Of a DNA stretch of 38,945 bases, positions 3,992 to 38,945 are shown piece after piece. The stretch comes from a virus. Taxonomy: Duplodnaviria; Heunggongvirae; Uroviricota; Caudoviricetes. Location of the stretch: the IMG/VR virus record IMGVR_UViG_2531839524_000011; one strand, 5' to 3'. The position numbers were made by a program, and so were the translations under genes. Below the pieces are notes generated by a model that was given only the letters and a program-made list of their open reading frames with translations, was not told the origin of the DNA and searched no databases. Within the stretch, counting starts at the first letter, position 1. The number at the start of each line of letters is the position of its first letter.

Positions 3992-4818
3992 AGAAATTCA
4001 GACTCTTTCAGATTATCCCGCTTTTTGCCGCCATCCTGCTGGTTGGTTGCGATCGCGTTGAGCCAGGTAATGTGGGCATCAAAGTCAACAAACTGGGCGA
4101 CGACAAAGGCGTCGGTGAAGTGGTTGGCGTTGGCCGCTACTGGACAGGCTGGAATACAGAGGTTTACATCTTCCCGACCTTCAAACAAATGAAGACCTAC
4201 GATGAGCCGTTCAGCTTCCAGATGAGCGACGGCACAACCATCGGCTATCACATCGGTGTGACCTACAAGGTTGATCCATCCAAAGTTACCACAGTGTTTC
4301 AGACCTACCGCAAAGGCGTGGATGACATTACCGACACTGACCTGCGCCAGAAGATCGCCGATGCACTCAACCGACTGGCCAGCAAAATGACCACCGATAA
4401 GTTTATCGACGGTGGTAAGTCTGAACTGCTGGATTCAGCACTTAAAGATATTCAGGAAGAGATGACCCCCATCGGCATTCAGGTCATGAGCCTCTCTTAT
4501 GTCGGTAAACCGGAATATCCGCCAACCGTTATCGACAGCATTAACGCCAAAGTCACGGCAAACCAGAAAACCCTGCAACGTGAACAGGAAGTCAAGCAAC
4601 GCGAAGCTGAAGCCAACATGCTGCGCGCAGAAGCTGCCGGACAGGCCGATGCCATTCGCACAAAAGCCCAGGCTGAAGCCGACGCCATTCGTTTACGCGG
4701 CGAAGCTCTGCGCCAGAATCCCGGCGTTATGGAGCTGGAAGCGATCAACAAATGGAACGGCACGCTGCCGCAATACATGACCAGTAACACCGCTGTTCCG
4801 TTCGTTCCCGTGAAGTAA
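3988..4818 (+). CDS. SPFH/band-7 (stomatin-prohibitin-flotillin-HflK/C-like) lipoprotein
   Basis: 276 aa; lipobox LLVGC after the signal peptide; band-7-like core and a C-terminal coiled-coil alanine/glutamate-rich segment (QREAEANMLRAEAAGQADAIRTKAQAEADAIRLRGEAL) typical of HflC/K-like proteins. Confidence 0.75.
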   Translation: MKKFRLFQIIPLFAAILLVGCDRVEPGNVGIKVNKLGDDKGVGEVVGVGRYWTGWNTEVYIFPTFKQMKTYDEPFSFQMSDGTTIGYHIGVTYKVDPSKVTTVFQTYRKGVDDITDTDLRQKIADALNRLASKMTTDKFIDGGKSELLDSALKDIQEEMTPIGIQVMSLSYVGKPEYPPTVIDSINAKVTANQKTLQREQEVKQREAEANMLRAEAAGQADAIRTKAQAEADAIRLRGEALRQNPGVMELEAINKWNGTLPQYMTSNTAVPFVPVK

Positions 4819-4824
4819 TTAAAT

Positions 4825-4849
4825 CCGGCCAGTGAAAACCGCTGGCCGG
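4825..4849 (+). terminator. Stem-loop after the SPFH gene (weak intrinsic terminator candidate)
   Basis: ccggccag-tgaaaaccg-ctggccgg hairpin; the T-run is displaced about 15 nt downstream. Confidence 0.4.
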
Positions 4850-5185
4850 AGCAGTATCAGGATTTTTTAGTATGCCGTTCTCACAAAAAAACCGCTTGCC
4901 ATGCCGCAATCAGTCAGGTTACATTTCCGCTGCACCTCACAAAACGGGTGCCGGGTTTCGCAGCCTGCTGACTACACAAGCGCACAACCGCGCCAGCGGT
5001 TTTTTTGTGCGTACTGTATTGCCACGTTTTTTTCGCGTCAGAATTATGGCGGGGCGTACGGGGCCGACTTCGGTCGGGCCGGGTTCTTGTGTAGCCGGGA
5101 CTGCGAACCTCGTACGTCTCGCCACCCACAGTTTCGCAGCTCTGGATGGTGAGTTTTCACAACTTACTACACAAGGGGCCACACC
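4850..5185. other. GC-rich structured non-coding interval (candidate sRNA / regulatory or replication-associated element)
   Basis: No convincing ORF with an RBS; nested hairpins including gggccgac-ttcg-gtcgggcc enclosed by gcgtacg...cgtacgt (5054..5117); terminator-like ccgcgccagcggttttttt at about 4989..5007; direct repeat actacacaag at 4970 and 5166. Confidence 0.3.
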
Positions 5186-5416
5186 ATGGCAAACCGCAAA
5201 CCACACCGCGCTATCGCGGAGCGTCGTCACATCCAGACTGAAATCAACCGCAGACTTTCCCGCGCATCACGCGTCGCGCAAATCATGCACATCAATATGT
5301 TGCATGAGCGCAGCCACGCACTATCAAACATTTATTCCGCCTCTGTTTTCAGCTATCTGGCGGATGATCTGCACGAGCTTCAACAGCTCATCCAGCAGCA
5401 AAACAAACTCCATTAA
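5186..5416 (+). CDS. Hypothetical protein (76 aa)
   Basis: ORF preceded by aagggg RBS-like sequence 7 nt upstream of the ATG. Confidence 0.45.
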   Translation: MANRKPHRAIAERRHIQTEINRRLSRASRVAQIMHINMLHERSHALSNIYSASVFSYLADDLHELQQLIQQQNKLH

Positions 5417-5488
5417 TTCCTGTTCCGGGCCTTTCCTGCACCTTGCGGCGGGAGGCCTTCGCACATCTGTAACAAGAGGATTGCCGCA

Positions 5489-5854
5489 ATGATTCTCGCC
5501 AACGACTTTCTTGAATACCTGCTCAACACAGAACGTGATCTTGCCGCCCGCGTGCGTGATCGTTATGACATGTACCTGAAATCCCTGCCTGTACCGCAGC
5601 TCGCTGACGGAAAGATTGTTATTGATGGTCGCTACATGATTGACAGCCACGAGGGAAATTACAGGCTTTACCGCATTGAAGGTGGCACCCCGTCCGTTAT
5701 TGGCATTTACCAGCGCCCATCCTCTGCAATCGTCGATGTGATTGCCGACAGCATCCGCATCACACATCGCCATGCCGACACAGAAGACACCGTGCTGGAA
5801 ATTCAGCGGCTGGCTACAGTCTGCCGCGACACCCTGAATGGCATGACGAAGTAA
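5489..5854 (+). CDS. Hypothetical protein (121 aa)
   Basis: ORF immediately upstream of gene A. Confidence 0.55.
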   Translation: MILANDFLEYLLNTERDLAARVRDRYDMYLKSLPVPQLADGKIVIDGRYMIDSHEGNYRLYRIEGGTPSVIGIYQRPSSAIVDVIADSIRITHRHADTEDTVLEIQRLATVCRDTLNGMTK

Positions 5855-5860
5855 ATCACT

Positions 5861-8683
5861 ATGACGGCAGAGTACATCAGGGACTGGCAACAACCGCGCC
5901 ACGCAGTGGGGCGTGAAGGAACGGGGATCCCCACTCCTGAATCCGCGCTTTCCTCCTGGCTGGATGCCTACCGGGCAGAGAACGAGCGCCGCCAGGAAAT
6001 GGCTGATGCGGCGTTCTCCGCCACGCCGCTGGGCAACCTGATTAATAAAAGCCTGGACGCACAGGAAAAACAGGACAAAACCATCACACTGGCAGGAGAC
6101 GCCAGAAAGCAGGCACGCGGCGCGGTGGATGAAGCCATGGCCTCGCTGCGCCTGCTGCCGTCCTATCTGCGCGATCCGCTTATTCGCCACCTCTCCTTCC
6201 TGCGCAAAAAACAGGAATCTGACCGCCAGAAAGGTAAAAAGAACCAGCAGGCTGAACGCTACGCGCGCGGGACCCTGCGCAAAATATTCGAACGTCTGGA
6301 CCGCACCGACCACCGCTGGCTGACACCGGGTTATCGCGCCCTTGCCGGACGCGAACGCCTGGATGATTTGCTTTACCTCCCGCAGCTCAACAAGCACCAG
6401 ATACAGACGCTGGCCACCATGACGGCGGCGATGTTCAGCAGCACCTTCGAAAAACTCTGCGATGGCTTTGGCGCAACCGATGGCGAGCTGACCATGGATG
6501 TAACCCTGAAGGCGTATCAGATGCTGGCCCGCATGGCGTTACACCTGCACGCCATGCCTCCACATTATGACGCACTGACAACAGACAAAGACCGGAGGAA
6601 CGAACCGGACACGGAGCTGCTGCCGGGCGCAATCCTTCGCCTGACCTGTGCGGAATGGTGGAAACGCAAACTGTGGCTGTTACGTTGCGAGTGGAGAGAA
6701 GAACAACTCCGCGCCGCCTGTCTGGTTTCCAGAAAAACATCGCCCTATCTGAGCCAGGACGCGTTAAGCGAGTTTCGCGCACAGCGCGAGAAGACACGCG
6801 ATTTCCTGAAAAGTTTCATGCTGGAAAACGAAGACGGGTTCACGATTGATCTCGAGACAGTGTATTACGCGGGAGTAAGTAACCCGGTTCACCGTAAGGC
6901 AGAAATGATGGCCACCATGAAGGGACTGGAACTTCTGGCCGAAGCCCGTGGCGACAGAGCGGTGTTTCTGACTGTCACCTGCCCGTCAAAATACCACGCC
7001 ACAACAGAGAACGGTCATCCGAATCCCAAATGGAACGGGGCCACCATGCGCGACTCCAGCGATTACCTGGTTAACACGTTTTTTGCGGCTGTCCGCAAAA
7101 AACTGAACCGCGACGGTCTGCGCTGGTATGGCATCCGCACGGTGGAGCCTCACCATGACGGCACCGTGCACTGGCATATGATGGTCTTTGCTCATCCGGA
7201 AGAAATCGACACCATTGTGTCCCACACCCGCGATATTGCCATTCAGGAAGACCGCCACGAGCTGGGCGATGACATAACTCCGCGCTTTAAGGCGGAGTAC
7301 GTCGACGGCTCAAAAGGCACACCAACCAGCTACATCGCCACCTACATCGGAAAGAACCTGGACAGCCACGCCGTGGATGGCATCGACCCGAAAACGGGCA
7401 AGCCACGCGTTGACCACGAAACCGGAAAATCAATGGCCGAGAGCGTGGAGCGCGCCATCGGCTGGGCACGCCTTCACCGGGTCCGCCAGTTCCAGTTCTT
7501 TGGCATTCCCTCCCGTCAGGTGTGGCGTGAACTCCGCCGCCTTGCCAGCCAGATAGCACGCAACCCGGAAGGCCCGCAACGGCTGAAGGATGATGCAATG
7601 GATGCGGTACTCGCTGCCGCTGATGCCGGATGTTTTGCCACCTACATTGAAAAACAGGGCGGCGTACTTGTTCCACGCAAGGACTACCTGATTCGCACCG
7701 CCTACGACCTCGCCGATGAGCTGAACGATTACGGCGAACAGAGCGTACAGATTTACGGGATCTGGTCACCACTCATCGGGGAATCCTCCCGTGTGTGCAC
7801 GCATCCGGATAACTGGAAGCTGGTAAGACGCAAACCGGAAGCGAAAGACAGCGCCCGCGAAAATGGTTTTGACCTTCAGGGCGGCCCTGCCGCCCCTTGG
7901 ACTCGTGGCAATAACTGTCCCCGTGTACAGGAAACGGACAACAACGGGACAGAACAGCCGGAAGAACGGCCAGCACCGTGGCCGCAGCTTCCTGACGGCG
8001 TTGACGTGAATGAATGGATGCGCTCACTGAAACGGCACGAACGCCGGGCGCTGATGCGTTCGCTGCGTGACAAACAGGCAAAAAACAGCAGTGATGAGAT
8101 GCAGAGCTGGACACAGAGCCGCAAACAGCCGCGGCCTTTGCCTGATAACCACGAATTACTCGCTAAAGAATGGCGGGAGTCTGCTGAATCTCTCGGCCTG
8201 CATATCGGTGAACAGCAAATGCAGCACCTGTTACGGGGCGGCAGTCTGTACGTTGACGGCAGCATCATTGCACCGCAGGGATTTGAAATTGTACGCAAAC
8301 CGGATACCCGCCCGGACAGCCGAATCACGCAGCTCTGGCTGCGCCTGAGCCGTAATCACGGCGTAAGCAGCACGGAGATCCGCCATAACCCGGTCGCCAG
8401 TTATCTGGAACAGCTAGGGGCATCAGCCCCCGAAGCCGCCGCACGCCTGGCATCCACACTTCAGCAAGACCAGAACACCATGAAAACACCCGTTACCGTG
8501 CTTTCTGACATGCTGCGCGCCATCCGCGACGCAGAGCACGCGCAGAGAATCAGTGAAACTGCTGAACGCGCCCGCCGCAAAGCAGACCTGCTGCGGGGTG
8601 GCCTGACCAGCGGAAACAAAAAACAGACAGAAACGGGATTCACAAATCCCGTAAATGAGCAAAAAACGCGCCGCGATATATGA
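5861..8683 (+). CDS. A: Rolling-circle replication initiator (P2 gpA-like HUH endonuclease)
   Basis: 940 aa; HUH motif in GTVHWHMMVFAHPEE and paired catalytic tyrosines in TPTSYIATYIGKN, as in P2 A / phiX174 A-type initiators; position after the early genes. Confidence 0.9.
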   Translation: MTAEYIRDWQQPRHAVGREGTGIPTPESALSSWLDAYRAENERRQEMADAAFSATPLGNLINKSLDAQEKQDKTITLAGDARKQARGAVDEAMASLRLLPSYLRDPLIRHLSFLRKKQESDRQKGKKNQQAERYARGTLRKIFERLDRTDHRWLTPGYRALAGRERLDDLLYLPQLNKHQIQTLATMTAAMFSSTFEKLCDGFGATDGELTMDVTLKAYQMLARMALHLHAMPPHYDALTTDKDRRNEPDTELLPGAILRLTCAEWWKRKLWLLRCEWREEQLRAACLVSRKTSPYLSQDALSEFRAQREKTRDFLKSFMLENEDGFTIDLETVYYAGVSNPVHRKAEMMATMKGLELLAEARGDRAVFLTVTCPSKYHATTENGHPNPKWNGATMRDSSDYLVNTFFAAVRKKLNRDGLRWYGIRTVEPHHDGTVHWHMMVFAHPEEIDTIVSHTRDIAIQEDRHELGDDITPRFKAEYVDGSKGTPTSYIATYIGKNLDSHAVDGIDPKTGKPRVDHETGKSMAESVERAIGWARLHRVRQFQFFGIPSRQVWRELRRLASQIARNPEGPQRLKDDAMDAVLAAADAGCFATYIEKQGGVLVPRKDYLIRTAYDLADELNDYGEQSVQIYGIWSPLIGESSRVCTHPDNWKLVRRKPEAKDSARENGFDLQGGPAAPWTRGNNCPRVQETDNNGTEQPEERPAPWPQLPDGVDVNEWMRSLKRHERRALMRSLRDKQAKNSSDEMQSWTQSRKQPRPLPDNHELLAKEWRESAESLGLHIGEQQMQHLLRGGSLYVDGSIIAPQGFEIVRKPDTRPDSRITQLWLRLSRNHGVSSTEIRHNPVASYLEQLGASAPEAAARLASTLQQDQNTMKTPVTVLSDMLRAIRDAEHAQRISETAERARRKADLLRGGLTSGNKKQTETGFTNPVNEQKTRRDI

Positions 8684-8759: not shown

Positions 8760-9719
8760 ATGAAAATTTGTATCGACGACGGCTCCACCAACATCAAGCT
8801 GGCATGGACTGAGAACGGCGAACGCCGCAACGCCATCAGCCCGAACAGCTTCAAGTCGGAATGGTCTGCGCCGTTCGGCGGCACGCAGCCCGCGAACTAC
8901 ATGCTTGATGGCGTGCGCTATGGTTTTGATCCGGTCAGCGATCGCTTTGTCCAGACGACCGACACGCAATACCAGTACAGCGATGTGAATGTCATTGCCA
9001 TTCATCACGCGCTGGTCAAATCAGGCATCACGCCACAGGAGGTGGATGTGGTTGTCACCCTGCCACTGAGCGAGTATTTCGACACAAACGCACAGCCGGA
9101 CATGGCCAACATCAACCGCAAAAAAGCGAACGTTATGCGCCCGGTGGAGTACCAGAACGGCGAAGCATTCACTATCCGTAACGTGCGGGTTATGCCTGAA
9201 TCCATTCCGGCTGGCTTTAAGGCACTGGCTGACATGAGTCCGTTTGAATCCCTGCTGATTGTGGATTTGGGCGGAACCACGCTGGATGTGGCAAAGGTTC
9301 AGGGGCAACTGGCAGGTATCAGCCAGGTGTTTTGCGATCCACACGTAGGCGTTTCCCTGATGGCCGATGCCGTACTGTCGGTGATGGCCACTAACGGTAT
9401 GCGTACCAGTCACCACATCGCCAATACCATTATCGAACATCGCCATGATGAAGCCTGGCTGCGCCAGCACATCCACAATGACGCGCATTACGCCAGCCTG
9501 ATGGCGGTTATTCGTGAAAAGGAAGAAACACTGAAACAACGCGTGATCCGCGCGCTGGCGGTTTTTTCGGGTTACGGGCGGGTGATGGTTGTCGGTGGCG
9601 GGGCGGAGATTGTGGCACCCGCTATCCGCGAAGCCTGCGGAGTTAATGCGACTTTCATCGCGGATGGGGTGCCACAGTTTGCTCTGGTTAATGGGCTGTA
9701 CGCAATGGACAAGGAGTAA
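8760..9719 (+). CDS. parM: ParM/StbA-like actin-family partition ATPase
   Basis: 319 aa; MKICIDDGSTNIKLAW, YSDVNVIAIHHAL, MPESIPAG, LIVDLGGTTLD and VMVVGGGAE match the plasmid R1 ParM (StbA) signature blocks as I recall them. Confidence 0.85.
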   Translation: MKICIDDGSTNIKLAWTENGERRNAISPNSFKSEWSAPFGGTQPANYMLDGVRYGFDPVSDRFVQTTDTQYQYSDVNVIAIHHALVKSGITPQEVDVVVTLPLSEYFDTNAQPDMANINRKKANVMRPVEYQNGEAFTIRNVRVMPESIPAGFKALADMSPFESLLIVDLGGTTLDVAKVQGQLAGISQVFCDPHVGVSLMADAVLSVMATNGMRTSHHIANTIIEHRHDEAWLRQHIHNDAHYASLMAVIREKEETLKQRVIRALAVFSGYGRVMVVGGGAEIVAPAIREACGVNATFIADGVPQFALVNGLYAMDKE

Positions 9720-9723
9720 ACCA

Positions 9724-10035
9724 ATGACGACACCAACCAGACGGATAAGTTTCTATCTGAAGCCCGCCGCCGTCAAGAACGAAGGCGAAGCATGCGCCTG
9801 GCTGGACAGCCTTACACCAGAAGCCCGCAAAAGCGGCCAACGCGTGGCTTTTCTGGCCGGGCTGGCACTACTGAAAATGAATCCGGCAGATGCTTACCGA
9901 CTGGCTGCATGGGCTGATGATGAGGCGTTATCAGTGACACAAACCAGGACAGAACGCCCCGCGTCACAGCCAGTATCAACCGCACAGATAACCAGTCAGA
10001 TGGCCGGAAATATCCGGGCGTTATTTCCCGATTAG
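9724..10035 (+). CDS. parR: ParR/StbB-like partition adaptor (ribbon-helix-helix type)
   Basis: 103 aa from ATG 9724; RRISFYLKP...RVAFLAGLALLK resembles the R1 ParR N-terminus (RTIAFKLNP...RAALTAGLALYR) as recalled; immediately downstream of parM. Confidence 0.6.
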   Translation: MTTPTRRISFYLKPAAVKNEGEACAWLDSLTPEARKSGQRVAFLAGLALLKMNPADAYRLAAWADDEALSVTQTRTERPASQPVSTAQITSQMAGNIRALFPD

Positions 10036-10164
10036 AACTTTGCACGGGCGGTTTCCAGTTCTGAAAACAATCAGCAAAGAAGGTGTCGAACGTCAAAGAT
10101 ATAAGGCCGCCTAGCTGGCGGTCTTGTGTCTTAAAATATGTTTATCTTAATGAGGATTATAATT

Positions 10165-10689
10165 TTATGAAAAATAATCATCATGAGAGGAAACATGCAA
10201 ATTATAATCACTCAATTGGGGAATAATCCCCCTACTCCAAAGCAACGTTTTATTTAGTCCAAGTCCATCTAATTTCATCATCCTGTTGCGCAGCGCAATG
10301 AACTCATTCTTGAAGTTATCTGCAGAGATGATTTTTGGGCAAAAACAAGAATACAATTTTCTGTTACTTACGCCACAAGCATTGGCAAGCTCATCCTCAA
10401 AATTGCTTGTTTGTTGAAATAGGTGGATTGTGTGTTTTTTCGCCTTTAATAGATTTAGGTTATTCTTAAATCTACCAAGATTCTCAATCCTATCCGTATC
10501 AAAAACCACTATAATTTCGCTATTTTCGGTTAATGCTGGCATGTATTTATTTATATTAACATTCCATAAATTAGCAATTACTATTTTCTTAATAGGATAG
10601 CCTAGCAATGTTTTGAAATCCTGAAACAATGCTTTTTCCGTATCTCCCTCAACGAGAATGATAGCAAATTTCTTAACTGCCATAATCAA
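10165..10689 (-). CDS. TOPRIM-domain protein (OLD-family C-terminal-half-like / AriB-like), 174 aa
   Basis: N-terminal ILVEGDTEK conserved glutamate followed by IIVVFDTD (DxD), the TOPRIM metal-binding signature; start overlaps the ATPase stop (ATGA); very AT-rich. Confidence 0.6.
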   Translation of the reverse strand: MIMAVKKFAIILVEGDTEKALFQDFKTLLGYPIKKIVIANLWNVNINKYMPALTENSEIIVVFDTDRIENLGRFKNNLNLLKAKKHTIHLFQQTSNFEDELANACGVSNRKLYSCFCPKIISADNFKNEFIALRNRMMKLDGLGLNKTLLWSRGIIPQLSDYNLHVSSHDDYFS

Positions 10690-11885
10690 TCCTCAAATAG
10701 CATCTCTTCGATTAATGAAACGTCAGGTATTGTTGCAAAACAGTCATTTTTTACTTTATTTAAAAGATTGCGATCATTCTTTTTATGATGTGTGGTAGCT
10801 TCAACAAAAGTGGTTAAACCATCTACTTTTTTAGTAAAAGTATATGAATGCGTAGGCAGATCTAAGCTCAAGATATCATAATTATGTGTGGTGTATATAA
10901 ATTGACCATACCTGCAAAGCTTAGATATAATCAGTGTGACCATCATTTTTTCTAATTCAGTATGAGTGAAGGCCATTTTCTCATCCAAAAAGTACACCCC
11001 ACTGCAAGGGAAATTGAACTCACGCTCTTCTATTTTATCTTCAAGCACTCCTGACAGGAGATGGGATATTTTTACTGCCTCATAAGTACCACGAGACAGT
11101 CTATCTTTATTTGTTATATCACCTTCCATATCAATAATAACTCTATCTCCATTATTGAAGACTACTGAATACCCCTGCAAATCCTCCTTTCCCTCATCAT
11201 CTTTAAGAGTGAGTCCTGAGACAGATTTAACAGTATTGTCAAAAGTTTTTAATATGCTATTAAGCACATTCTTCTTAATTCGGGATATTTTATCCGTGTT
11301 CTCTTGGTTTTCAGATAGAATGAAATGCCAACCAAGAACAAAGTCCAAATCCTCTAAATATTGGGAAAATTCTTTTGAGTTAGCGTTTTCAGTTGAAAAA
11401 AATCTATTTTGACCATTTAATTCAAACTTTTGCGCATCCCACACAGCATCCAATCTTTTGGTCGTCTTTGCGCATGATTCCGAGCTTCTTAAATCAACAG
11501 ATGCCATTGCAATTTTTTCTACAACAACAGACTCATCCATAGCCCTAAGCCAGAAACCTGCCCTAAACAAACATTTTAAATGACTCTGGAAAAAGTCAAC
11601 CTCTATATATGCAGGTTTTCTTTTGTCAGTAATTTTTAACGGTTCTGGATTAAAAACACCACTACTGAGAAAACGCAACACAGAAAGCATCACGCGACCA
11701 AGAGATGTTTTACCAGATGCATTAGCACCAGAAACGATGCAAACCTTTTTGAAGTAGAATTTTTCAAATCCATCAATGTACTCACCTTCCAGTGAGCTGT
11801 TGACCGGGGGTCTGGAGAAGCTTAAGTCAAGGATGCTATTTTCAAAGCAAAAAAGATTATCGATTCTGATTTTTGTAAAAGCCAT
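10686..11885 (-). CDS. ABC/SMC-type ATPase (OLD-family N-terminal-half-like / AriA-like), 399 aa
   Basis: Walker A GANASGKTS; ABC-signature-like LSRGTYEAV; Walker B VYFLDE; H-loop IYTTHN; AT-rich island located in the P2 tin/old slot between A/par and portal Q. Confidence 0.75.
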   Translation of the reverse strand: MAFTKIRIDNLFCFENSILDLSFSRPPVNSSLEGEYIDGFEKFYFKKVCIVSGANASGKTSLGRVMLSVLRFLSSGVFNPEPLKITDKRKPAYIEVDFFQSHLKCLFRAGFWLRAMDESVVVEKIAMASVDLRSSESCAKTTKRLDAVWDAQKFELNGQNRFFSTENANSKEFSQYLEDLDFVLGWHFILSENQENTDKISRIKKNVLNSILKTFDNTVKSVSGLTLKDDEGKEDLQGYSVVFNNGDRVIIDMEGDITNKDRLSRGTYEAVKISHLLSGVLEDKIEEREFNFPCSGVYFLDEKMAFTHTELEKMMVTLIISKLCRYGQFIYTTHNYDILSLDLPTHSYTFTKKVDGLTTFVEATTHHKKNDRNLLNKVKNDCFATIPDVSLIEEMLFED

Positions 11886-12421
11886 TTTGTTCCACCTTTT
11901 GGAAGTAAATATTGCTATCTGTTGAGTTTACATGTAATGAGCTGGTAAGCAATACAGGGATTCGATTTATCGCAAAATAGTGCACAAATTTGCACAATTT
12001 TTTTGAATGATTTTTTGCCCTTCCAGCCCGCATGGCGGCTGGATCCGTCAAGGATCCGTGCGTGCACAAAAAAACGCGTTTTTTCTGCGCGCAGGTGACG
12101 GGGGAACAGCCCGCGTTTCAGGGGGTAAATAGCATTCCCTGAGCGATGTCGCAGCGACACAACAGAATGGCCATATTTCTCACGCTGAGCGTGAAAAATA
12201 TGTGAGGGCTTTTGATTTGATGGGGTGAAAGGTAAGGCCGTCAAAATCGCACTGAGGCGGCGAGAACATACAGTCAACGCGGTAGGATTGCGTAAGAGTC
12301 TGACTGTCGATGGTGGCGATAAACTGGAAGGCGTCGTGAAATTATCTGATTGATACAGGAGCTGGAGAGTCGGGGCATAAATTTTTTATGCCCCGGCGAA
12401 GCAGCAGACAAGCGAAGCGCG

Positions 12422-13468
12422 TCAGGATGTGGGCTGAGTATCTAACAGTGCGTAAGGGTTAAAGCGGATCACCTCTTCGCCAAGCCAGTCATTGATGTGC
12501 TTCATGGCCTCCATGACGGGCATCAGCTCGTTAATTGCGTAAACCCGCGCGGCCTTCTCCACATCACCAAACGCACTTTTTTCACCCGGCATCGCCCCCA
12601 TCAGTTGCGGCGGAACGCGGTGCGCAGCCAGCACATCATCACGGGATGCCGCCTTAACATTCATGAACTCATCCTTTGCGGTGATCTGCTGGAACGGCAA
12701 AATTTGCACACCTTCTTTGCCACCGTTGGGCGCATGAATGAGCACGTTTTTAAATGCACCACCACCACGTGCACCCTGTAGCGTTTCCTTCAGGGAGTCC
12801 ATGCTTTCGCGGTTTACCTGCGCTGCACCGATGTAGATGATGCACCCGGCGTGGGATCCATTGTCGTAGTACAGTTTTCTGAACATGTCCGCCGAATGAG
12901 ACAGGCTGGCCGAGAGTAATGCGCCGAGATATTCCGGCATGCCGTAGATTTCCTGGTTAATGTCAGGATTCATCAGGTGGCACACTTTGCCAGGGCGAAA
13001 CTGAAACGCATCCTTACCATCCTGCACATACCACCATGATTCAAGATCGCTTCCGCGTCGCATGTATTTCGCCAGGGCGTGCCGTAATTTAAGCGGTTCG
13101 CCGAGCATATTGCTCCGAAGCTCAAGGAATGCGTTACCGAACACAAACCAGTCCAGCGCCAGCGCCGAGAAATCCTGCCGGGAAAGCAGCGGGTGCGGGA
13201 TGTAGCAACCGAGCAATACATTACGCTTAAAGTAAAGCGCAGACTGATGCCAGGACGTTTGCCGGGCAGCTCTTGCCAGACCGTACCAGTCCACCGGGGT
13301 TTCATACCACCGCCCGTTATCAGCACAGTACATATTGTCCAGCAAATCATGCCCGGTCAGGCGATAAGGACCATCAAATGTGAATGCACTGAGCGACGAT
13401 TCTTTCCTGAGCGCATCAGCGAGATCAATGCGTGAACTCATGCGCACTTTTTTATTTTTTCTGCTCAT
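12422..13468 (-). CDS. Q: Portal protein (P2 gpQ-like)
   Basis: 348 aa; position and orientation next to the terminase large subunit as in P2; size matches gpQ. Confidence 0.85.
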   Translation of the reverse strand: MSRKNKKVRMSSRIDLADALRKESSLSAFTFDGPYRLTGHDLLDNMYCADNGRWYETPVDWYGLARAARQTSWHQSALYFKRNVLLGCYIPHPLLSRQDFSALALDWFVFGNAFLELRSNMLGEPLKLRHALAKYMRRGSDLESWWYVQDGKDAFQFRPGKVCHLMNPDINQEIYGMPEYLGALLSASLSHSADMFRKLYYDNGSHAGCIIYIGAAQVNRESMDSLKETLQGARGGGAFKNVLIHAPNGGKEGVQILPFQQITAKDEFMNVKAASRDDVLAAHRVPPQLMGAMPGEKSAFGDVEKAARVYAINELMPVMEAMKHINDWLGEEVIRFNPYALLDTQPTS

Positions 13469-26056: not shown

Positions 26057-26584
26057 ATGATGCACTTAAAGAACATAAAAGCGGGTAACGCTAAAACACT
26101 GGAACAGTATGAGTTAACAAAGAAACACGGAGTTATCTGGCTTTACTCTGAGGACGGAAAAAACTGGTATGAGGAAGTGAAAAACTTTCAGCCAGACACA
26201 ATAAAGATTGTTTACGATGCAAATAATATTATTGTCGCCATCACCAAAGATGCATCCACGCTTAATCCCGAAGGTTTTAGCGTTGTCGAGGTTCCAGATA
26301 TTACAGCCAACCGCCGCGCTGATGATTCAGGAAAGTGGATGTTTAAGGACGGAGCTGTGGTTAAGCGGATTTATACGGCAGACGAACAGCAACAACAGGC
26401 CGAATCACAAAAGGCCGCATTGCTTTCCGAAGCTGAATCAGTCACCCAGCCACTGGAACGCGCTGCCAGGCTGAATATGGCAACAGACGAGGAGCGCACA
26501 CGACTGGAAGCATGGGAACGCTACAGTGTTCTGGTCAGCCGTGTGGATACAGCAAAGCCCGAATGGCCACAAAAGCCTGAATAA
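26057..26584 (+). CDS. G: Tail fibre assembly chaperone (P2 gpG-like)
   Basis: 175 aa directly after H; paralogous to the minus-strand 26613..27146 ORF (both begin MMHLKNI...AGN.KT.EQY.LTK). Confidence 0.8.
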
Positions 26585-26612
26585 AAATTAAGGCCCGCTA
26601 TCGGGCCTTGTC

Positions 26613-27146
26613 TCATTCAGGTTGTTCGGGAAATGTTACTGGCAGGCTGGAGGGGTCTGTGGATTCGACTTTCTGCGCATAGAGCATCCACTCGGTTAAT
26701 TTTTGTTTATTCTCGTCGGAAATGATGCCCAGCCGTAGCTGTGAGTCCCATAGCTGGGTTTTATCCCTGACAAGTTGCAACAGGCTTTGCTTTTCATTCT
26801 CTGCCTGCTGCCTCTGTTCCTCCCCGGTATAAGTTCGCTTTATCACCACGCCATCTTTGAACATCCATTTACCCGAAATATCAGCCCGGCGATTTGCTGT
26901 AATATCAGGTAATTCAACGACGCTTGCGCCTTCTGGGTTAATTGCTGAAACATCCTTTTCAATACAAATAATAACGCCGTTATGGTCATAGGCCATTTTC
27001 AATGTGTCTGGCCGGAAATTCTTTTGTTCCTCATACCAGTTTTTTCCATCATCTGAATAAAGCCATTTGATGTTAAATTGCTTTGTTAGCTGGTATTGCT
27101 CTTTTGTTTTAGGATTGCCAGCAGTAATGTTTTTTAAGTGCATCAT
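26613..27146 (-). CDS. Alternative tail fibre assembly chaperone (G'), used after inversion
   Basis: 177 aa paralogue of G on the opposite strand inside the invertible segment. Confidence 0.8.
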   Translation of the reverse strand: MMHLKNITAGNPKTKEQYQLTKQFNIKWLYSDDGKNWYEEQKNFRPDTLKMAYDHNGVIICIEKDVSAINPEGASVVELPDITANRRADISGKWMFKDGVVIKRTYTGEEQRQQAENEKQSLLQLVRDKTQLWDSQLRLGIISDENKQKLTEWMLYAQKVESTDPSSLPVTFPEQPE

Positions 27147-27148
27147 AA

Positions 27149-28093
27149 TTAAATACTCCCCGCGTTATACCACGTTCCATTAATGCAATACTGAACTGGC
27201 CTTGCCTGTGTTGTATCAATTAATTCATCACGGTTTCCGTTAACTGAACCCGTAACGACATAACCTGACCTGTCAGACCAGCCGGGACCATTCCATGTCT
27301 GAACAGATGACAGACCGCCCAGACGAATACCTGTAATAAACTTTGAGTTACATTCCGCTTTGGTATATGCACCAACATCCCCCGCAGAGGGCTTGTAGGT
27401 TGTGGTGTAAAACGCTGACCAGTTATCTTCAAAGCCATAACCATCACGCGCTGAACGATAAAGGATACCGCCGTTCCTGTAATTCACACGGAACTGTACG
27501 GCAGGGCAACTCCCCGTATTCATATTGAAGTGGAGTATTAATGCTGTTGCGCCTTTGATATCTGCATCATAAACACCGCTATTCCAGTTCCAGCCAACAG
27601 CTTTATCATTTGCAACCCTGCTTCCTGTCTGCCCTAAAGCAAATGCAGGCTGCTGGTTTTTCGTGTTGTAGTCTCGTCGCCAGCCAGGAGCATAAGCATC
27701 ACCATGATTAATATAGGTGAATTGAGCGTTAGTAATTCCGCCGCCGCTGGACGTGCTCGGCGTGGTAACGCGTATGGTCATTGCGCCGCGAGTGCCAATA
27801 ACTTCCACCACAGCACCTGCAAGACAAATATTTCCGCAACCTGTATCTGTAATGACCTTATTATTTGCATAAGCCCATGAGCCTTTGCACATCCAGTAAG
27901 GATGGTTAAATGCCCCCTGACTCTCCAGCCACGAAATGAATTGTGCGGTTGTCCAGGCCTGACTATCGCCACCAATATTCAGCCATGCGCTATATGCGCG
28001 GCAGGCACCAATATTTTTGGTGAAGGTATCTTTTCCCGGAATATCTGCGCCGTTCTGTTTTTTCTGTAATGCGCCAGAAGCCTGATTTACCGT
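27149..28093 (-). CDS. Alternative tail fibre C-terminal segment (H'), has no start of its own; fuses to H after inversion
   Basis: The minus-strand frame is open from the right gix site (reads [15 protein letters not shown], identical to H at the left site) through ...WMCKGSWAYANN... to the stop at 27149. Confidence 0.7.
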   Translation of the reverse strand, partial: TVNQASGALQKKQNGADIPGKDTFTKNIGACRAYSAWLNIGGDSQAWTTAQFISWLESQGAFNHPYWMCKGSWAYANNKVITDTGCGNICLAGAVVEVIGTRGAMTIRVTTPSTSSGGGITNAQFTYINHGDAYAPGWRRDYNTKNQQPAFALGQTGSRVANDKAVGWNWNSGVYDADIKGATALILHFNMNTGSCPAVQFRVNYRNGGILYRSARDGYGFEDNWSAFYTTTYKPSAGDVGAYTKAECNSKFITGIRLGGLSSVQTWNGPGWSDRSGYVVTGSVNGNRDELIDTTQARPVQYCINGTWYNAGSI

Positions 28094-28119
28094 TTCCTGT
28101 AAACCGAGGTTTTAGATAA
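28094..28119. other. gix/cix/hix-type 26-bp inversion crossover site (right)
   Basis: ttcctgtaaaccgaggttttagataa, reverse complement ttatctaaaacctcggtttacaggaa, the classic Gin/Hin/Cin crossover consensus. Confidence 0.75.
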
Positions 28120-28173
28120 TGGCCGTTTCTGGCCTGCATGGCATGATTTGCGCTTTTGGACGGGAGATTCAGT

Positions 28174-28761
28174 GTGCTGATTGGCTATGTAAGGGTATCA
28201 ACAAATGACCAGAATACAGACCTGCAACGAAACGCTCTTGTTTGTGCAGGATGTGAACAAATATTTGAAGATAAATTAAGCGGGACAAAGACAGACCGAC
28301 CGGGATTAAAACGCGCTTTAAAGCGCCTTCAACAAGGTGACACGCTGGTTGTCTGGAAACTGGATCGCCTCGGGCGAAGCATGAAACATCTGATTTCTCT
28401 CGTCGGGGAACTACGGGAGCGAGGGATTAATTTTCGCAGTCTGACCGACAGCATAGATACATCTTCTCCAATGGGGCGTTTTTTCTTCCACGTGATGGGT
28501 GCCCTGGCTGAAATGGAACGTGAATTAATTGTAGAGCGTACACTGGCCGGTCTGGCAGCAGCACGCGCACAAGGACGCACAGGCGGACGTCGCCCGAAGC
28601 TGACAAAAGAACAGAATGAGCAAATAGCAAGGCTGATTAAAAACGGGCACGACAGAAAACAACTGGCAATAATTTACGGCATTGGTACATCGACGATTTA
28701 TCGTTACCACCCCGCAGGAGAATCAAGCGGAACAATTGAGAAGAGTCAGGAAACAAAATAA
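28174..28761 (+). CDS. gin: Serine DNA invertase, Gin/Hin/Cin/Pin family
   Basis: LIGYVRVSTNDQNTDLQRNAL...GDTLVVWKLDRLGRSMKHLISLVGELRERGINFRSLTDSIDTSSPMGRFFFHVMGALAEMERELI is near-identical to Mu Gin as recalled; GTG start at 28174 (TTG at 28156 possible). Confidence 0.9.
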   Translation: MLIGYVRVSTNDQNTDLQRNALVCAGCEQIFEDKLSGTKTDRPGLKRALKRLQQGDTLVVWKLDRLGRSMKHLISLVGELRERGINFRSLTDSIDTSSPMGRFFFHVMGALAEMERELIVERTLAGLAAARAQGRTGGRRPKLTKEQNEQIARLIKNGHDRKQLAIIYGIGTSTIYRYHPAGESSGTIEKSQETK

Positions 28762-36274: not shown

Positions 36275-36451
36275 GGAAACCGCGACGGGGGAGTAATCCC
36301 CCGTCAATCAGTTGCCAGGATAAGGTCGATAAGGCATCCTGTCTCACTCTATACCAGCTAATCAATTGACACATATCAATAAAAAGCCTGATAAAATCAA
36401 AATGTTTTGTTACAAATGTCAGCTAGTAGAGGGCCAAAGGAGGCAGATTAT

Positions 36452-36784
36452 ATGGCATTAATCAAATGTCCTGAATGCCAGAAAGAGGTGATCGATTCAG
36501 TATTGTCTTGCCCTGCTTGTGGCAAACAACTGAAAAATCTTAAACGCTCATTTTTTGGAGAACTCATTAAGTGTTTTTTTATATTATTTAATATTTTTAT
36601 AATCTACACGATTTGTATTGGGCTAAGAGAGGTGGGTGAAATAATAAACAACGCCACATCCGATGCCGAAAAAGCCGGTACAGTTATTGGTACGGGCTTA
36701 GGTTTAATTGCTATTGGAGGCTTATGGGTTATTGGCAATATCATTATCGGAAATTTAGTATTTCTTACTAAACCAAAGGGATAA
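36452..36784 (+). CDS. Zinc-ribbon membrane protein (110 aa)
   Basis: aaggagg RBS; CPECQ...CPACG zinc ribbon at the N-terminus followed by two hydrophobic helices; AT-rich. Confidence 0.5.
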   Translation: MALIKCPECQKEVIDSVLSCPACGKQLKNLKRSFFGELIKCFFILFNIFIIYTICIGLREVGEIINNATSDAEKAGTVIGTGLGLIAIGGLWVIGNIIIGNLVFLTKPKG

Positions 36785-36788
36785 CAAA

Positions 36789-37682
36789 ATGAAAAATGTG
36801 ATTATTTCTATAGGCGCATCATTTATATCAATTAGTGTGCTACCTGCTCACGCAGCAACTGAGCATAATAACTTTAAGTCATCACTCCAGTGCCGAGCAA
36901 TAGAAAATAATAAAGAAAGACTTTCTTGTTATGATAAGTCAATACAACCGACTCGAACGACAGTTGCTGAAAAATTCGAAAGCAGAGATCAATGCCCTGA
37001 TGAGAAAGATGATGACAGACGTTTATCTTGTTATGACCGTTTTTTTTCTCCAACATTTACTCCGCCTGTAAGCTCAAAATCTAAAGTGAAACAGCTAGTA
37101 ACAACAGAGACTCAGCAACCAAATCTTTCTGAGATATCTAAATGTCGAGCAGAAAACGATAAAGAAACTAGAGTAAACTGCTACGATAAACTATTTCCAC
37201 AGGAAAAAGCTACGCAATCTAAATCAAAATTAGAGAAAGCCACAGACTCAGGAAAATGGCACACATCCATTACTACATCGCCAATTGATGATTCGAAAAA
37301 TGTAATTTTATCGTTAGAAAGTGATGATTATATAAGAACTCCATTTGGAGAAGCGGTTACCCCTACTCTGTTTATAGCTTGCCGAGAAAAGAAAACCGAA
37401 GTATTTCTTAATTGGGATGTATATTTAGGCCTTGAACAAACCAGCATGCTGTATCGCCTTGATAAACAGAAAGCAGTTGAGCGAAACTGGCTAGTATCTA
37501 CAGATACAAAGGCTGTTTTTTATAAAGGCAATGACATTAACTTCATCAGAAAACTAGCCAACTCAAACAAAATGTATGCAAGAATAACCCCTTATAATGA
37601 AAGCCCTGTAAGTGCAACTTTCAATTTAAACGGCCTGTCAACCACGCTAAAACCGCTTCAAGAAGCCTGTAACTGGAAATAG
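36789..37682 (+). CDS. Secreted/periplasmic protein with three C-x8-R(L/V)xCYD(K/R) repeats
   Basis: Signal peptide MKNVIISIGASFISISVLPAHA; repeats CRAIENNKERLSCYDK, CPDEKDDDRRLSCYDR, CRAENDKETRVNCYDK; AT-rich. Confidence 0.55.
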   Translation: MKNVIISIGASFISISVLPAHAATEHNNFKSSLQCRAIENNKERLSCYDKSIQPTRTTVAEKFESRDQCPDEKDDDRRLSCYDRFFSPTFTPPVSSKSKVKQLVTTETQQPNLSEISKCRAENDKETRVNCYDKLFPQEKATQSKSKLEKATDSGKWHTSITTSPIDDSKNVILSLESDDYIRTPFGEAVTPTLFIACREKKTEVFLNWDVYLGLEQTSMLYRLDKQKAVERNWLVSTDTKAVFYKGNDINFIRKLANSNKMYARITPYNESPVSATFNLNGLSTTLKPLQEACNWK

Positions 37683-37712
37683 TATAAATCATGCGGCTAA
37701 GCCACAATCACA

Positions 37713-37750
37713 GATAACACAAAGCCCGTGAAAACGGGCTTTGTGTTATC
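37713..37750 (+). terminator. Perfect 16-bp stem-loop after the cargo operon
   Basis: gataacacaaagcccg-tgaaaa-cgggctttgtgttatc; no clear T-run, so possibly bidirectional or structural. Confidence 0.45.
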
Positions 37751-37763
37751 TATAACTCGAAAA

Positions 37764-37783
37764 TGTGGTCACTGCGTGGACAT
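37764..37783. repeat. Candidate attR core (direct repeat of 11..29)
   Basis: tgtggtcactgcgtggacat versus gtggacactgcgtggacac at the window start. Confidence 0.35.
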
Positions 37784-37949
37784 GCGCCGATACAAATCCT
37801 TTTATATCAAAAAGTTAAATCAACATCTTTTTCATCAACAAGGATTTTCACGTTTGTGTTACCTGTATGAGACGAGAGTTAACCGGACAAGTGTGCCATA
37901 ATCTCGCGGCCAGGCATACTTGCGAAGATTTCAGGTATAAGGATACGTA

Positions 37950-38945
37950 ATGATACAACCTATTTCCGGCCCTCCTCCTGGGCAACCACCAGGTCAGGGA
38001 GATAACCTGCCGTCTGGCGCGGGCAATCAGCCTTTATCCAGTCAGCAACGTACTTCGCTGGAAAGCTTAATGACGAAAGTGACCTCACTGACGCAACAGC
38101 AAAGAGCAGAACTGTGGGCGGGTATCAGGCACGATATTGGTCTGTCGGGAGATTCACCGCTGCTTTCGCGTCACTTCCCTGCCGCTGAGCATAATCTGGC
38201 GCAACGTCTGCTGGCCGCGCAAAAAAGCCATTCTGCCCGCCAGCTTTTAGCTCAATTAGGGGAGTATTTACGTCTGGGGAATAATCGTCAGGCGGTCACG
38301 GATTATATCCGTCATAACTTTGGTCAGACGCCGCTGAATCAGCTCTCACCGGAGCAATTAAAAACCATTCTCACCCTGTTGCAGGAAGGGAAGATGGTTA
38401 TTCCGCAACCGCAGCAGCGCGAGGCGACCGATCGTCCTCTATTACCGGCGGAGCACAATGCGCTCAAACAGCTGGTGACCAAACTTGCGGCGGCAACGGG
38501 GGAACCCAGCAAACAGATCTGGCAATCGATGCTGGAACTTTCCGGGGTGAAAGATGGTGAGTTAATTCCAGCGAAACTGTTTAACCATCTGGTGACCTGG
38601 CTGCAGGCGCGTCAGACGCTAAGCCAGCAAAATACGCCGACGCTGGAATCACTACAGATGACGCTAAAACAACCTTTAGATGCCAGTGAACTGGCGGCGT
38701 TATCGGCATATATCCAGCAAAAATATGGCCTTTCTGCGCAATCATCGCTTTCTTCTGCCCAGGCCGAGGATATTCTTAATCAGCTTTATCAACGGCGGGT
38801 TAAAGGGATTGATCCGCGTGATATGCAACCGCTGCTTAATCCTTTTCCACCGATGATGGACACGTTGCAAAATATGGCAACGCGTCCCGCGCTGTGGATA
38901 CTGTTAGTCGCGATTATCCTGATGCTGGTCTGGCTGGTTCGTTAA
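37950..38945 (+). CDS. flk: Host gene, Flk-like C-terminally membrane-anchored flagellar regulator
   Basis: 331 aa; proline-rich N-terminus MIQPISGPPPGQPPGQ and C-terminal TM anchor ALWILLVAIILMLVWLVR match my recollection of enterobacterial Flk; lies outside the candidate attR. Confidence 0.55.
   Translation: MIQPISGPPPGQPPGQGDNLPSGAGNQPLSSQQRTSLESLMTKVTSLTQQQRAELWAGIRHDIGLSGDSPLLSRHFPAAEHNLAQRLLAAQKSHSARQLLAQLGEYLRLGNNRQAVTDYIRHNFGQTPLNQLSPEQLKTILTLLQEGKMVIPQPQQREATDRPLLPAEHNALKQLVTKLAAATGEPSKQIWQSMLELSGVKDGELIPAKLFNHLVTWLQARQTLSQQNTPTLESLQMTLKQPLDASELAALSAYIQQKYGLSAQSSLSSAQAEDILNQLYQRRVKGIDPRDMQPLLNPFPPMMDTLQNMATRPALWILLVAIILMLVWLVR

Follow-up and report, generated by a model that had tools for sequence, protein, structure and literature searches.

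The 38,945-nucleotide stretch of viral DNA held in IMG/VR as record IMGVR_UViG_2531839524_000011 (called the window here) contains two adjacent minus-strand genes, of which the first encodes a 399-amino acid (aa) ABC-type ATPase and the second a small, stand-alone TOPRIM protein. Carried by a prophage, these two genes probably form an anti-phage module of the AbiL/RloAB type, within the wider group of OLD-like ABC ATPase plus TOPRIM defence systems. Both products have intact catalytic motifs, and the genes are under purifying selection, are obligately paired, and reside in a phage hotspot and on other mobile elements. An earlier note, made from the letters of this DNA alone, had called the locus a strong candidate anti-phage system; as a prediction this is borne out by the domains of the two proteins and by their place in a cos-proximal defence hotspot (PMC9122126). 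The closest known family, AbiL/RloAB, was not named in that note.

The ATPase

The ATPase matches Pfam AAA_15 with an E value of 2.5e-8 and 34.4 bits (cut-off 32.1). When it is compared with the PADLOC defence profiles, AbiLi is the best match (7.6e-28, over residues 3-392), followed by mad3 (1.5e-10) and AriA (5.9e-8). The same AbiLi profile is matched by all 69 of the ATPase relatives that were aligned, the best at 6e-32. All of the motifs listed in the earlier note are present in the two proteins, and their key residues are invariant across relatives. In the ATPase, Walker A reads SGANASGKTS (residues 52-61) and is followed by the signature LSRGT (residues 263-267), Walker B (VYFLDE) and the H-loop (TTHN). 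Because the central residues of Walker A, signature, Walker B and H-loop do not vary, either in the 69 relatives or in a set of 12 very diverse pairs (Table 1), the protein is read, from its motifs, as a catalytically competent ABC ATPase.

An AlphaFold2 (AF2) model of the ATPase, with a mean predicted local distance difference test score (pLDDT) of 89.8 and a predicted template modelling (TM) score (pTM) of 0.90, has a mixed alpha/beta insertion between Walker A and the signature, with no long coiled coil. Foldseek pairs this model with PtuA (of Septu and retron I-A), with SMC heads and with Rad50, at E values of about 1e-10 and TM-scores of 0.40-0.45. Sequence searches of the PDB, using either the single protein or the family profile, give the ATPase P-loop matches only and no informative structure, and NCBIfam returns nothing meaningful.

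The TOPRIM partner

The partner matches Pfam OLD-like_TOPRIM (4.3e-5, 24.4 bits; cut-off 23.2); thus the description of the locus as an ABC-ATPase plus TOPRIM module holds for both proteins in Pfam. RloB is reached only at an E value of 0.012 and 16.2 bits, below its cut-off of 31.5, and there is no match to DUF4276 or, at E<=1, to DUF4435. The PADLOC matches of the partner are AbiLii (6.5e-5, over a span of only profile positions 29-53 of 170), GajA (8.5e-5), mad4 (6e-4) and ATPase-Toprim_I-B (6e-4). Among the 34 partner relatives that were aligned, AbiLii is matched by 32, RloB by 10 (E<=0.01), OLD-like_TOPRIM by 7, mad4 by 3, and DUF4435 by none at E<=0.01. PDB sequence searches with the partner give only a spurious match to GmaR.

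The TOPRIM motifs of the partner read ILVEGDTEK and VVFDTD. The residues that are invariant in these 34 relatives are E12, G13, T15, E16, N38, D62, D64, N75, Q91, E96, E98 and K125, and most of them are also kept across the 12 very diverse pairs. In the Burkholderia (Bp) OLD nuclease the catalytic set consists of E400, E404, D455, D457, T506, E508 and K562 (PMC6755086). The E-x3-E spacing of the partner is that of Bp OLD E400/E404 (PMC6755086) and, by order and spacing, partner residues E12, E16, D62, D64, E96, E98 and K125 would correspond to this set. At the level of sequence, then, the partner has each of the elements of an OLD-type active site: the TOPRIM glutamate, the DxD, the extra acidic ligands and the lysine.

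One inherited unit

Both genes are real and intact, and both are under strong purifying selection. In a comparison with a 97%-identical copy in E. coli JP538, the ratio of nonsynonymous to synonymous substitution rates (dN/dS) comes to 0.069 in the ATPase gene and 0.076 in the partner gene. Homologues of both open reading frames (ORFs) number in the hundreds, which is more than chance ORFs would have. All 120 ATPase relatives listed are 366-447 aa long. The partner family comprises 717 clusters at 50% identity (E<=1e-3), and the best 150 of the 717 are all 116-195 aa; an ATPase–TOPRIM fusion is found neither among the 120 ATPase relatives listed nor among these best 150 partner clusters.

In each of ten ATPase relatives that were inspected individually, the next gene encodes a protein of 159-187 aa, and in the three most distant of the first-inspected set the downstream genes match the partner profile at 1e-39 to 1e-62. 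A systematic sample of 60 loci (24 from IMG/VR and 36 from species-representative genomes) is drawn mostly from Gamma- and Betaproteobacteria and includes a few Campylobacterota and Bacillota. Where there is room downstream (58 loci), an intact partner follows directly in 54, at a gap of -29 to +12 nt, and a fragmented one in 1. (In a Campylobacteraceae metagenome-assembled genome, L077, the partner at 2442-2997 is broken into three frames, either as a pseudogene or through an assembly error.) Pairwise identities of the ATPase and of the partner are correlated with r=0.91 over 66 comparisons, which is a measure of co-inheritance and no independent evidence of contact.

The gene junction

The earlier note had described two adjacent minus-strand ORFs, the first of 399 aa, that overlap by ATGA at 10686..10689, with a partner of 174 aa and a sum of 573 aa. 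The ORFs are there (10686..11885 and, depending on the start, 10165..10683 or 10165..10689), but the overlap is not: bases 10689..10686 read TTGA, and the junction on the minus strand is GAG GAT TGA TT ATG. The 174-aa ORF (10165..10689) would have to begin at a TTG. Translation more probably begins with the ATG at 10683, 2 nt past the ATPase stop, which gives a partner of 172 aa and a sum of 571. RefSeq annotates the 172-aa version for the E. coli JP538 copy, and the same layout of Shine-Dalgarno sequence, stop and ATG, with the ATG 2-3 nt past the ATPase stop, is seen in the K. pneumoniae, Erwinia and K. michiganensis copies. Since the Shine-Dalgarno sequence GAGGA lies within the last ATPase codons, 6 nt upstream of the partner ATG, where it is encoded by the conserved ATPase C-terminus ...LFED, translational coupling of the two genes appears plausible, as had been claimed, even with the supposed overlap absent. 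Past the TOPRIM stop, the hairpin CCGCCAGCTAGGCGG has a weak T-run and is a candidate terminator only.

The pair as cargo of a P2-type defence hotspot

The window comes from a prophage of E. coli that is related to P2 and belongs to Xuanwuvirus (P88-like), to judge from its flanks, in which P88, phage 520873 and Citrobacter phage Shae_phiSM are all matched. Its genes run from a gpA-like replication endonuclease through parM and parP to the gene pair, which is on the opposite strand, and then, past 450 bp of conserved sequence, to portal gene Q and terminase gene P. Read along the minus strand, this becomes P, Q, conserved region, ATPase, TOPRIM, as compared with P, Q, cos, old, tin in P2. The pair thus has the place of old/tin in P2, in agreement with the earlier note, and it shares their orientation, with transcription that leads away from cos.

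The cos-proximal gpA–gpQ locus is a validated defence hotspot of P2-like phages (Rousset 2022, PMC9122126). The gene pair is a variable insert of the kind that defines hotspot cargo, lying between gpA and portal gene gpQ, next to cos. In BLASTN comparisons with two other Xuanwuvirus phages, PhiR44_2 and Shae_phiSM, homology ends exactly at 10031 and resumes at 11972, and both of these phages have unrelated genes in the slot. The cargo, of about 1.94 kb, contains the two genes alone. It had been described as strongly AT-rich, and the guanine plus cytosine (GC) fraction is indeed 0.32-0.38 in the gene-pair region versus 0.52-0.60 in the flanks. In a search of 5426 E. coli genomes, most of the query is present in 6 complete records (5 strains), and some part of it, for the most part the conserved right flank, has a match in 1142 genomes.

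The left side of the cargo is abutted, inside the hotspot, by a ParM-like segregation ATPase (319 aa) and a small partition/stability protein (8760-10035); the parP stop is at most 4 nt from the cargo start. The presence of these genes within the hotspot suggests that prophages of this type may be maintained as plasmids too, a point noted by Rousset 2022. On the right side, a 450-bp non-coding stretch (11972-12421) that leads from the cargo to portal gene Q is 93-98% conserved in about 1140 E. coli genomes and 16 phage records. It probably contains cos, because the record of Xuanwuvirus P884B11 begins at window position 12016. The P2 cos sequence GGCGAGGCGGGGAAAGCAC was not found in the window with 3 mismatches allowed, and the position given for cos therefore comes only from the start points of Xuanwuvirus records. 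A perfect palindrome, GTGCACAAATTTGCAC, is present at 11980-11995, just upstream of the cargo boundary; it may serve as an operator or belong to a fixed 'hotspot promoter' from which any inserted cargo is expressed. A scan of 9900-12500 with Rfam gave sub-threshold chance matches only.

Where the relatives live

K. pneumoniae (80% ATPase identity), Erwinia rhapontici (63%) and K. michiganensis (48%) have P2-like prophages in which a copy fills the same portal–gpA slot and points the same way, and P2-type neighbours (gpA, portal or terminase) are found at 10 of the 24 IMG/VR loci. In Proteus mirabilis (L020, 1-11000) the pair is accompanied by two integrases, an 886-aa Toprim primase, a 'Derepression' protein and an Ogr/Delta activator. 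This element resembles a P4-like satellite, and the family may use hotspots of both the P2 and the P4 type. Other copies are located in defence islands, at a prophage end in Acinetobacter, in a Psychrobacter prophage near a Cap4-type nuclease, and at sites flanked by insertion sequences (IS). An island of Oligella urethralis (L018, 991-7706) has three consecutive pairs of an AAA_15 ATPase and a small downstream gene, at 991-2708, 4736-5819 (with the ATPase truncated beside an IS) and 6001-7706, which suggests stacked paralogous ATPase–effector modules. Searches of plasmids and phages by tblastn yielded 1 and 2 records only, and no match to a lactococcal plasmid.

A proposed mechanism

A sensor–effector logic for the pair may be drawn from PARIS and from the toxin–antitoxin pairs of AAA and TOPRIM proteins (Ernits 2023). 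In PARIS, the TOPRIM effector AriB is kept in check by the ATPase AriA; a phage protein acts as the trigger that sets AriB free to cleave tRNA (PMC11464382, PMC13064643). TOPRIM_OLD toxins are neutralised by their AAA partners in toxicity assays (Ernits 2023, PMC10440598), and lactococcal AbiL acts at a step past phage transcription (PMC13064643). It is because of these three precedents that the ATPase is proposed as sensor and keeper and the 172-aa protein as toxic nuclease. In this scheme, the 399-aa ABC ATPase would bind the 172-aa TOPRIM protein and hold it inactive. A trigger brought in by a superinfecting phage would cause an ATP-dependent rearrangement of the ATPase, by which the nuclease would be freed or activated. 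The nuclease, which by its sequence pattern is predicted to have a full OLD-type two-metal site, would then cut nucleic acid and so stop the growth of the infecting phage, whether by abortive infection or by exclusion. Its target would somewhat more likely be RNA of the translation apparatus, such as tRNA, than DNA.

Several points weigh against an anti-phage module of the AbiL/RloAB type that works in this way. The case for a defence phenotype in this subfamily is one of homology and genomic context, and the comparison with lactococcal AbiLi/AbiLii was made at the level of PADLOC profiles. Even the control logic of PARIS is debated, since deletion of either gene was non-toxic in one study (PMC9122126), and toxin–antitoxin-like behaviour is described elsewhere (PMC13064643). 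A consensus scan of the minus strand upstream of the ATPase gave no convincing sigma-70 promoter. Finally, in 3 of the 58 loci with room downstream, the more divergent ATPases (26-33% identity; L073, L074 and L084) are without a partner; these are possibly orphans or members of a different subfamily.

A bolder idea, which is tentative, is that the pair represents a distinct OLD-like branch, in which a 400-aa ABC ATPase without coiled coil operates with a self-contained 170-aa TOPRIM protein that has the whole two-metal site, and in which the trigger, the assembly or the target is unlike that of PARIS, Gabija and Old. If this were so, an E. coli P2-like prophage system could reveal how modules of the AbiL/RloAB type work.

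Alternative explanations

The pair might instead be an addiction module that stabilises the prophage or a plasmid-like state, with the TOPRIM protein as toxin, the ATPase as antitoxin, and defence as an incidental effect. The neutralisation of TOPRIM_OLD toxins by AAA proteins in toxicity assays (PMC10440598) speaks for this, as does the fact that the cassette adjoins parM/parP, at a locus where about a quarter of P2-like phages have partition genes (PMC9122126). However, other P2-like hotspots and chromosomal islands have the cassette but no partition genes, and the catalytic ABC motifs, for which a passive antitoxin would have no need, are all invariant. Toxin–antitoxin behaviour and abortive infection are, moreover, not exclusive of each other. 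A pure addiction role is unlikely and, like the restriction-modification (R-M) role taken up below, is a minor possibility.

The earlier note had offered, as one of two readings, a PARIS-like AriA/AriB pair with an unusually short TOPRIM partner. An AriA hexamer would then cage AriB until a trigger such as Ocr frees it, and tRNA-Lys would be cleaved. Detection of PARIS calls for AAA_15 at 32 bits or AAA_21 at 27 bits, together with a partner that has DUF4435 at 27 bits or more (Rousset 2022, PMC9122126). The ATPase of the window passes the first threshold with its 34.4 bits, AriA profiles are matched by up to 63 of the 69 ATPase relatives, and the two-gene order and the residence on mobile elements are the same. 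The partner, however, is without DUF4435 even at E<=1, and this is the domain that mediates AriB dimerisation (PMC11464382); PARIS membership is rejected on that ground. In addition, AbiLi beats AriA as a match to the ATPase by 20 orders of magnitude (7.6e-28 vs 5.9e-8), the 172-aa partner compares with an AriB of 35 kDa, and the ATPase model has no extended coiled-coil insertion. Taken together, these differences make a PARIS system with a short AriB very unlikely.

There is only a slight chance that the pair is an R-M accessory (Rlo-type), for example a guard that fires when an anti-restriction protein inhibits a type I R-M enzyme. PARIS does sense the anti-restriction protein Ocr (PMC13064643). 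In Glaesserella parasuis (L005, 418-7237) a type I R-M operon has a 37%-identical ATPase and its partner inserted with hsdR on one side and hsdM on the other, as has been reported for Campylobacter rloAB (cited in PMC13064643). Yet this is the sole case of a pair within an R-M operon at the approximately 70 loci seen; relatives of hsdR/hsdM are present within 6 kb at 0 of the 60 sampled loci (BLASTP at 1e-6, with the Glaesserella proteins as query), so that a general R-M linkage is rejected, and the cargo of the window has no R-M gene.

That a P2 old gene was recently split in two by a frameshift or nonsense mutation (and is now pseudogenised or newly bipartite), a form of the other reading of the earlier note (an old-type ATPase-nuclease split into two polypeptides), is scarcely credible and is taken as refuted: the order of ATPase then TOPRIM, the position and the orientation are those of P2 old, the sum of 571 aa is close to the Old protein (586 aa, as had been stated), and a weak hhalign alignment (E 0.0016, probability only 16%) is in the correct motif register, with partner VEGxTE on Old LLVEGKTET (residue 394 onward), DTD on Old DCD, and the region from signature through Walker B to H-loop on Old residues 258-348, but the BLASTP E values against P2 Old, 0.34 and 2.2, are without significance, fused relatives are absent from the sets described above, the two-gene state is kept across a range that runs from Enterobacterales through Betaproteobacteria to Bacillota, both genes have a dN/dS of about 0.07, and the junction has its own conserved Shine-Dalgarno sequence and ATG. 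An ancient common origin with fused OLD proteins is likely.

Features of the locus and of the rest of the window

Table 1. Features of the ATPase/TOPRIM locus, with window positions and the evidence for each
Feature	Position	Strand	Evidence
Cargo island, AT-rich, particular to this prophage lineage, within the gpA–gpQ hotspot	10032..11971	.	BLASTN, GC
ATPase Shine-Dalgarno sequence AGGTGG, 6 nt upstream of ATG	11892..11897	-	read directly
ABC-type ATPase gene (AAA_15, AbiLi-like), 399 aa + stop	10686..11885	-	Pfam, PADLOC, AF2, Foldseek
Walker A codons, G53-T60 GANASGKT	11706..11729	-	G53, N55, G58, K59 invariant in 69 relatives + 12 diverse pairs
ABC signature codons, R262-T267 RLSRGT	11085..11102	-	R262, S264, G266 invariant in 69 relatives + 12 diverse pairs
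Walker B codons, V297-E302 VYFLDE	10980..10997	-	D301, E302 invariant in 69 relatives + 12 diverse pairs
H-loop codons, T332-N335 TTHN	10881..10892	-	T332, T333, H334, N335 invariant in 69 relatives + 12 diverse pairs
Gene junction: Shine-Dalgarno GAGGA (10694..10690) in last ATPase codons, stop TGA (10688..10686), TT, ATG (10683..10681)	10681..10694	-	read directly
Predicted stand-alone mini-TOPRIM nuclease gene (AbiLii/RloB-like, OLD-type), 172 aa + stop	10165..10683	-	
TOPRIM glutamate codons, V11-E16 VEGDTE (E12, E16)	10636..10653	-	E12, G13, E16 invariant; aligned to P2 Old LLVEGKTET
DxD codons, D62-T63-D64	10492..10500	-	D62, D64 invariant in 34 relatives
ExE codons, E96-D97-E98, candidate second-metal ligands	10390..10398	-	E96, E98 invariant in 34 relatives + 12 diverse pairs
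K125 codon, candidate catalytic lysine	10309..10311	-	K125 invariant in 34 relatives + 12 diverse pairs
Terminator-like hairpin CCGCCAGCTAGGCGG, 44 nt past TOPRIM stop	10107..10121	-	consensus scan

Two other regions of the window stand apart from the locus. In the first (26057-28761), which has a lower GC fraction of 0.43-0.49, a serine invertase (28156-28758; Resolvase plus HTH_7, 2e-50) adjoins genes for tail-fibre C-termini and assembly that lie on opposite strands (26057-26584 on the plus strand; 26613-27146 and 27149-27892 on the minus strand). This region probably switches host range by inversion, as Mu G and P1 C do. The second (36400-38000) is another AT-rich patch, with a GC fraction of 0.35-0.41, which encodes a zinc-ribbon protein (36407-36781) and a protein like VasI of type VI secretion (36789-37679, 1e-24) and is probably beyond the prophage end.

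Comparison with known systems

Among the known systems that combine an ATPase with a nuclease, Gabija uses GajA, a fused ATPase-TOPRIM protein that works with the helicase GajB, whereas the pair described here consists of separate proteins; Gabija membership is rejected, as a UvrD-type GajB helicase is absent from cargo 10032..11971. In Septu and retron type I-A, the PtuA ATPases are the best fold matches of the window ATPase, but at TM-scores of only 0.4-0.45, and the effector there is the HNH nuclease PtuB rather than a TOPRIM protein. The mad3/mad4 proteins of MADS are likewise an ATPase and a small TOPRIM protein (DUF4276-type), and mad3 is matched by 68 of the 69 ATPase relatives; in contrast, mad4 is matched by just 3 of the 34 partners, and the other genes of this multi-gene, methylation-associated system are absent.

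PARIS resembles the pair in having an ABC ATPase of the AAA_15/21 group and a separate TOPRIM nuclease in cos-proximal hotspots of P2/P4-type elements, and it is the likely model for sensor–effector control of the pair. It differs in that its effector carries DUF4435 and is about twice the size of the window partner, and in that the AriA profile fits the window ATPase far less well than AbiLi does. P2 Old shares with the pair its genome position and orientation next to cos, the order of ATPase then TOPRIM, and the TOPRIM pattern of E, E, DxD, acidic pair and K; unlike the two proteins of the window, it is a single polypeptide. The pair is an analogue of P2 Old in the same niche, not an orthologue.

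AbiL (AbiLi/AbiLii of Lactococcus lactis, with AbiLii RloB-like) and RloAB form, as judged by profile matches, the closest known family, and AbiL was reportedly described in 1999. Like AbiL, the window pair is a tightly linked bicistronic operon in which the ABC ATPase gene leads and is followed by that of a small, separate TOPRIM protein, here with a gap of 2 nt and an internal Shine-Dalgarno sequence; for both proteins AbiL gives the best profile matches of all defence families. Carriage on mobile elements is also common to both, and one relative of the pair sits inside a type I R-M operon, as rloAB does. Unlike AbiL, which is on a lactococcal plasmid, the pair is in a Gram-negative P2-like prophage; its partner falls below the Pfam cut-off for RloB, and the AbiLii match is a short stretch of the profile.

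Burman 2024 (PMC11464382) groups AbiL beside PARIS, Old, Gabija and MADS3-4 as ATPase plus TOPRIM systems, and AbiL is likewise put together with PARIS in PMC13064643. The earlier note had suggested a variant that was not yet characterised, and this is right of the subfamily, for which PHROGs lists both protein families under 'unknown function' and a literature search for the RefSeq protein accessions found no citing paper. The architecture of an ABC ATPase plus a TOPRIM protein, on the other hand, is already known (PMC11464382, PMC10440598), and the locus does not add a new type of system. According to a 2026 review, which asks whether AbiL, RloAB and similar pairs work like PARIS, it is not known how AbiL acts (PMC13064643). 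The locus in the window offers a compact, tractable and E. coli-native model for this mechanism in a P2-like hotspot, with all catalytic residues intact, and natural variants of 48-99% identity in the same slot of other enterobacterial prophages make the question directly testable. It also adds a case in which the old/tin position of P2 is functionally replaced, as predicted here, by a distant two-protein analogue of Old.

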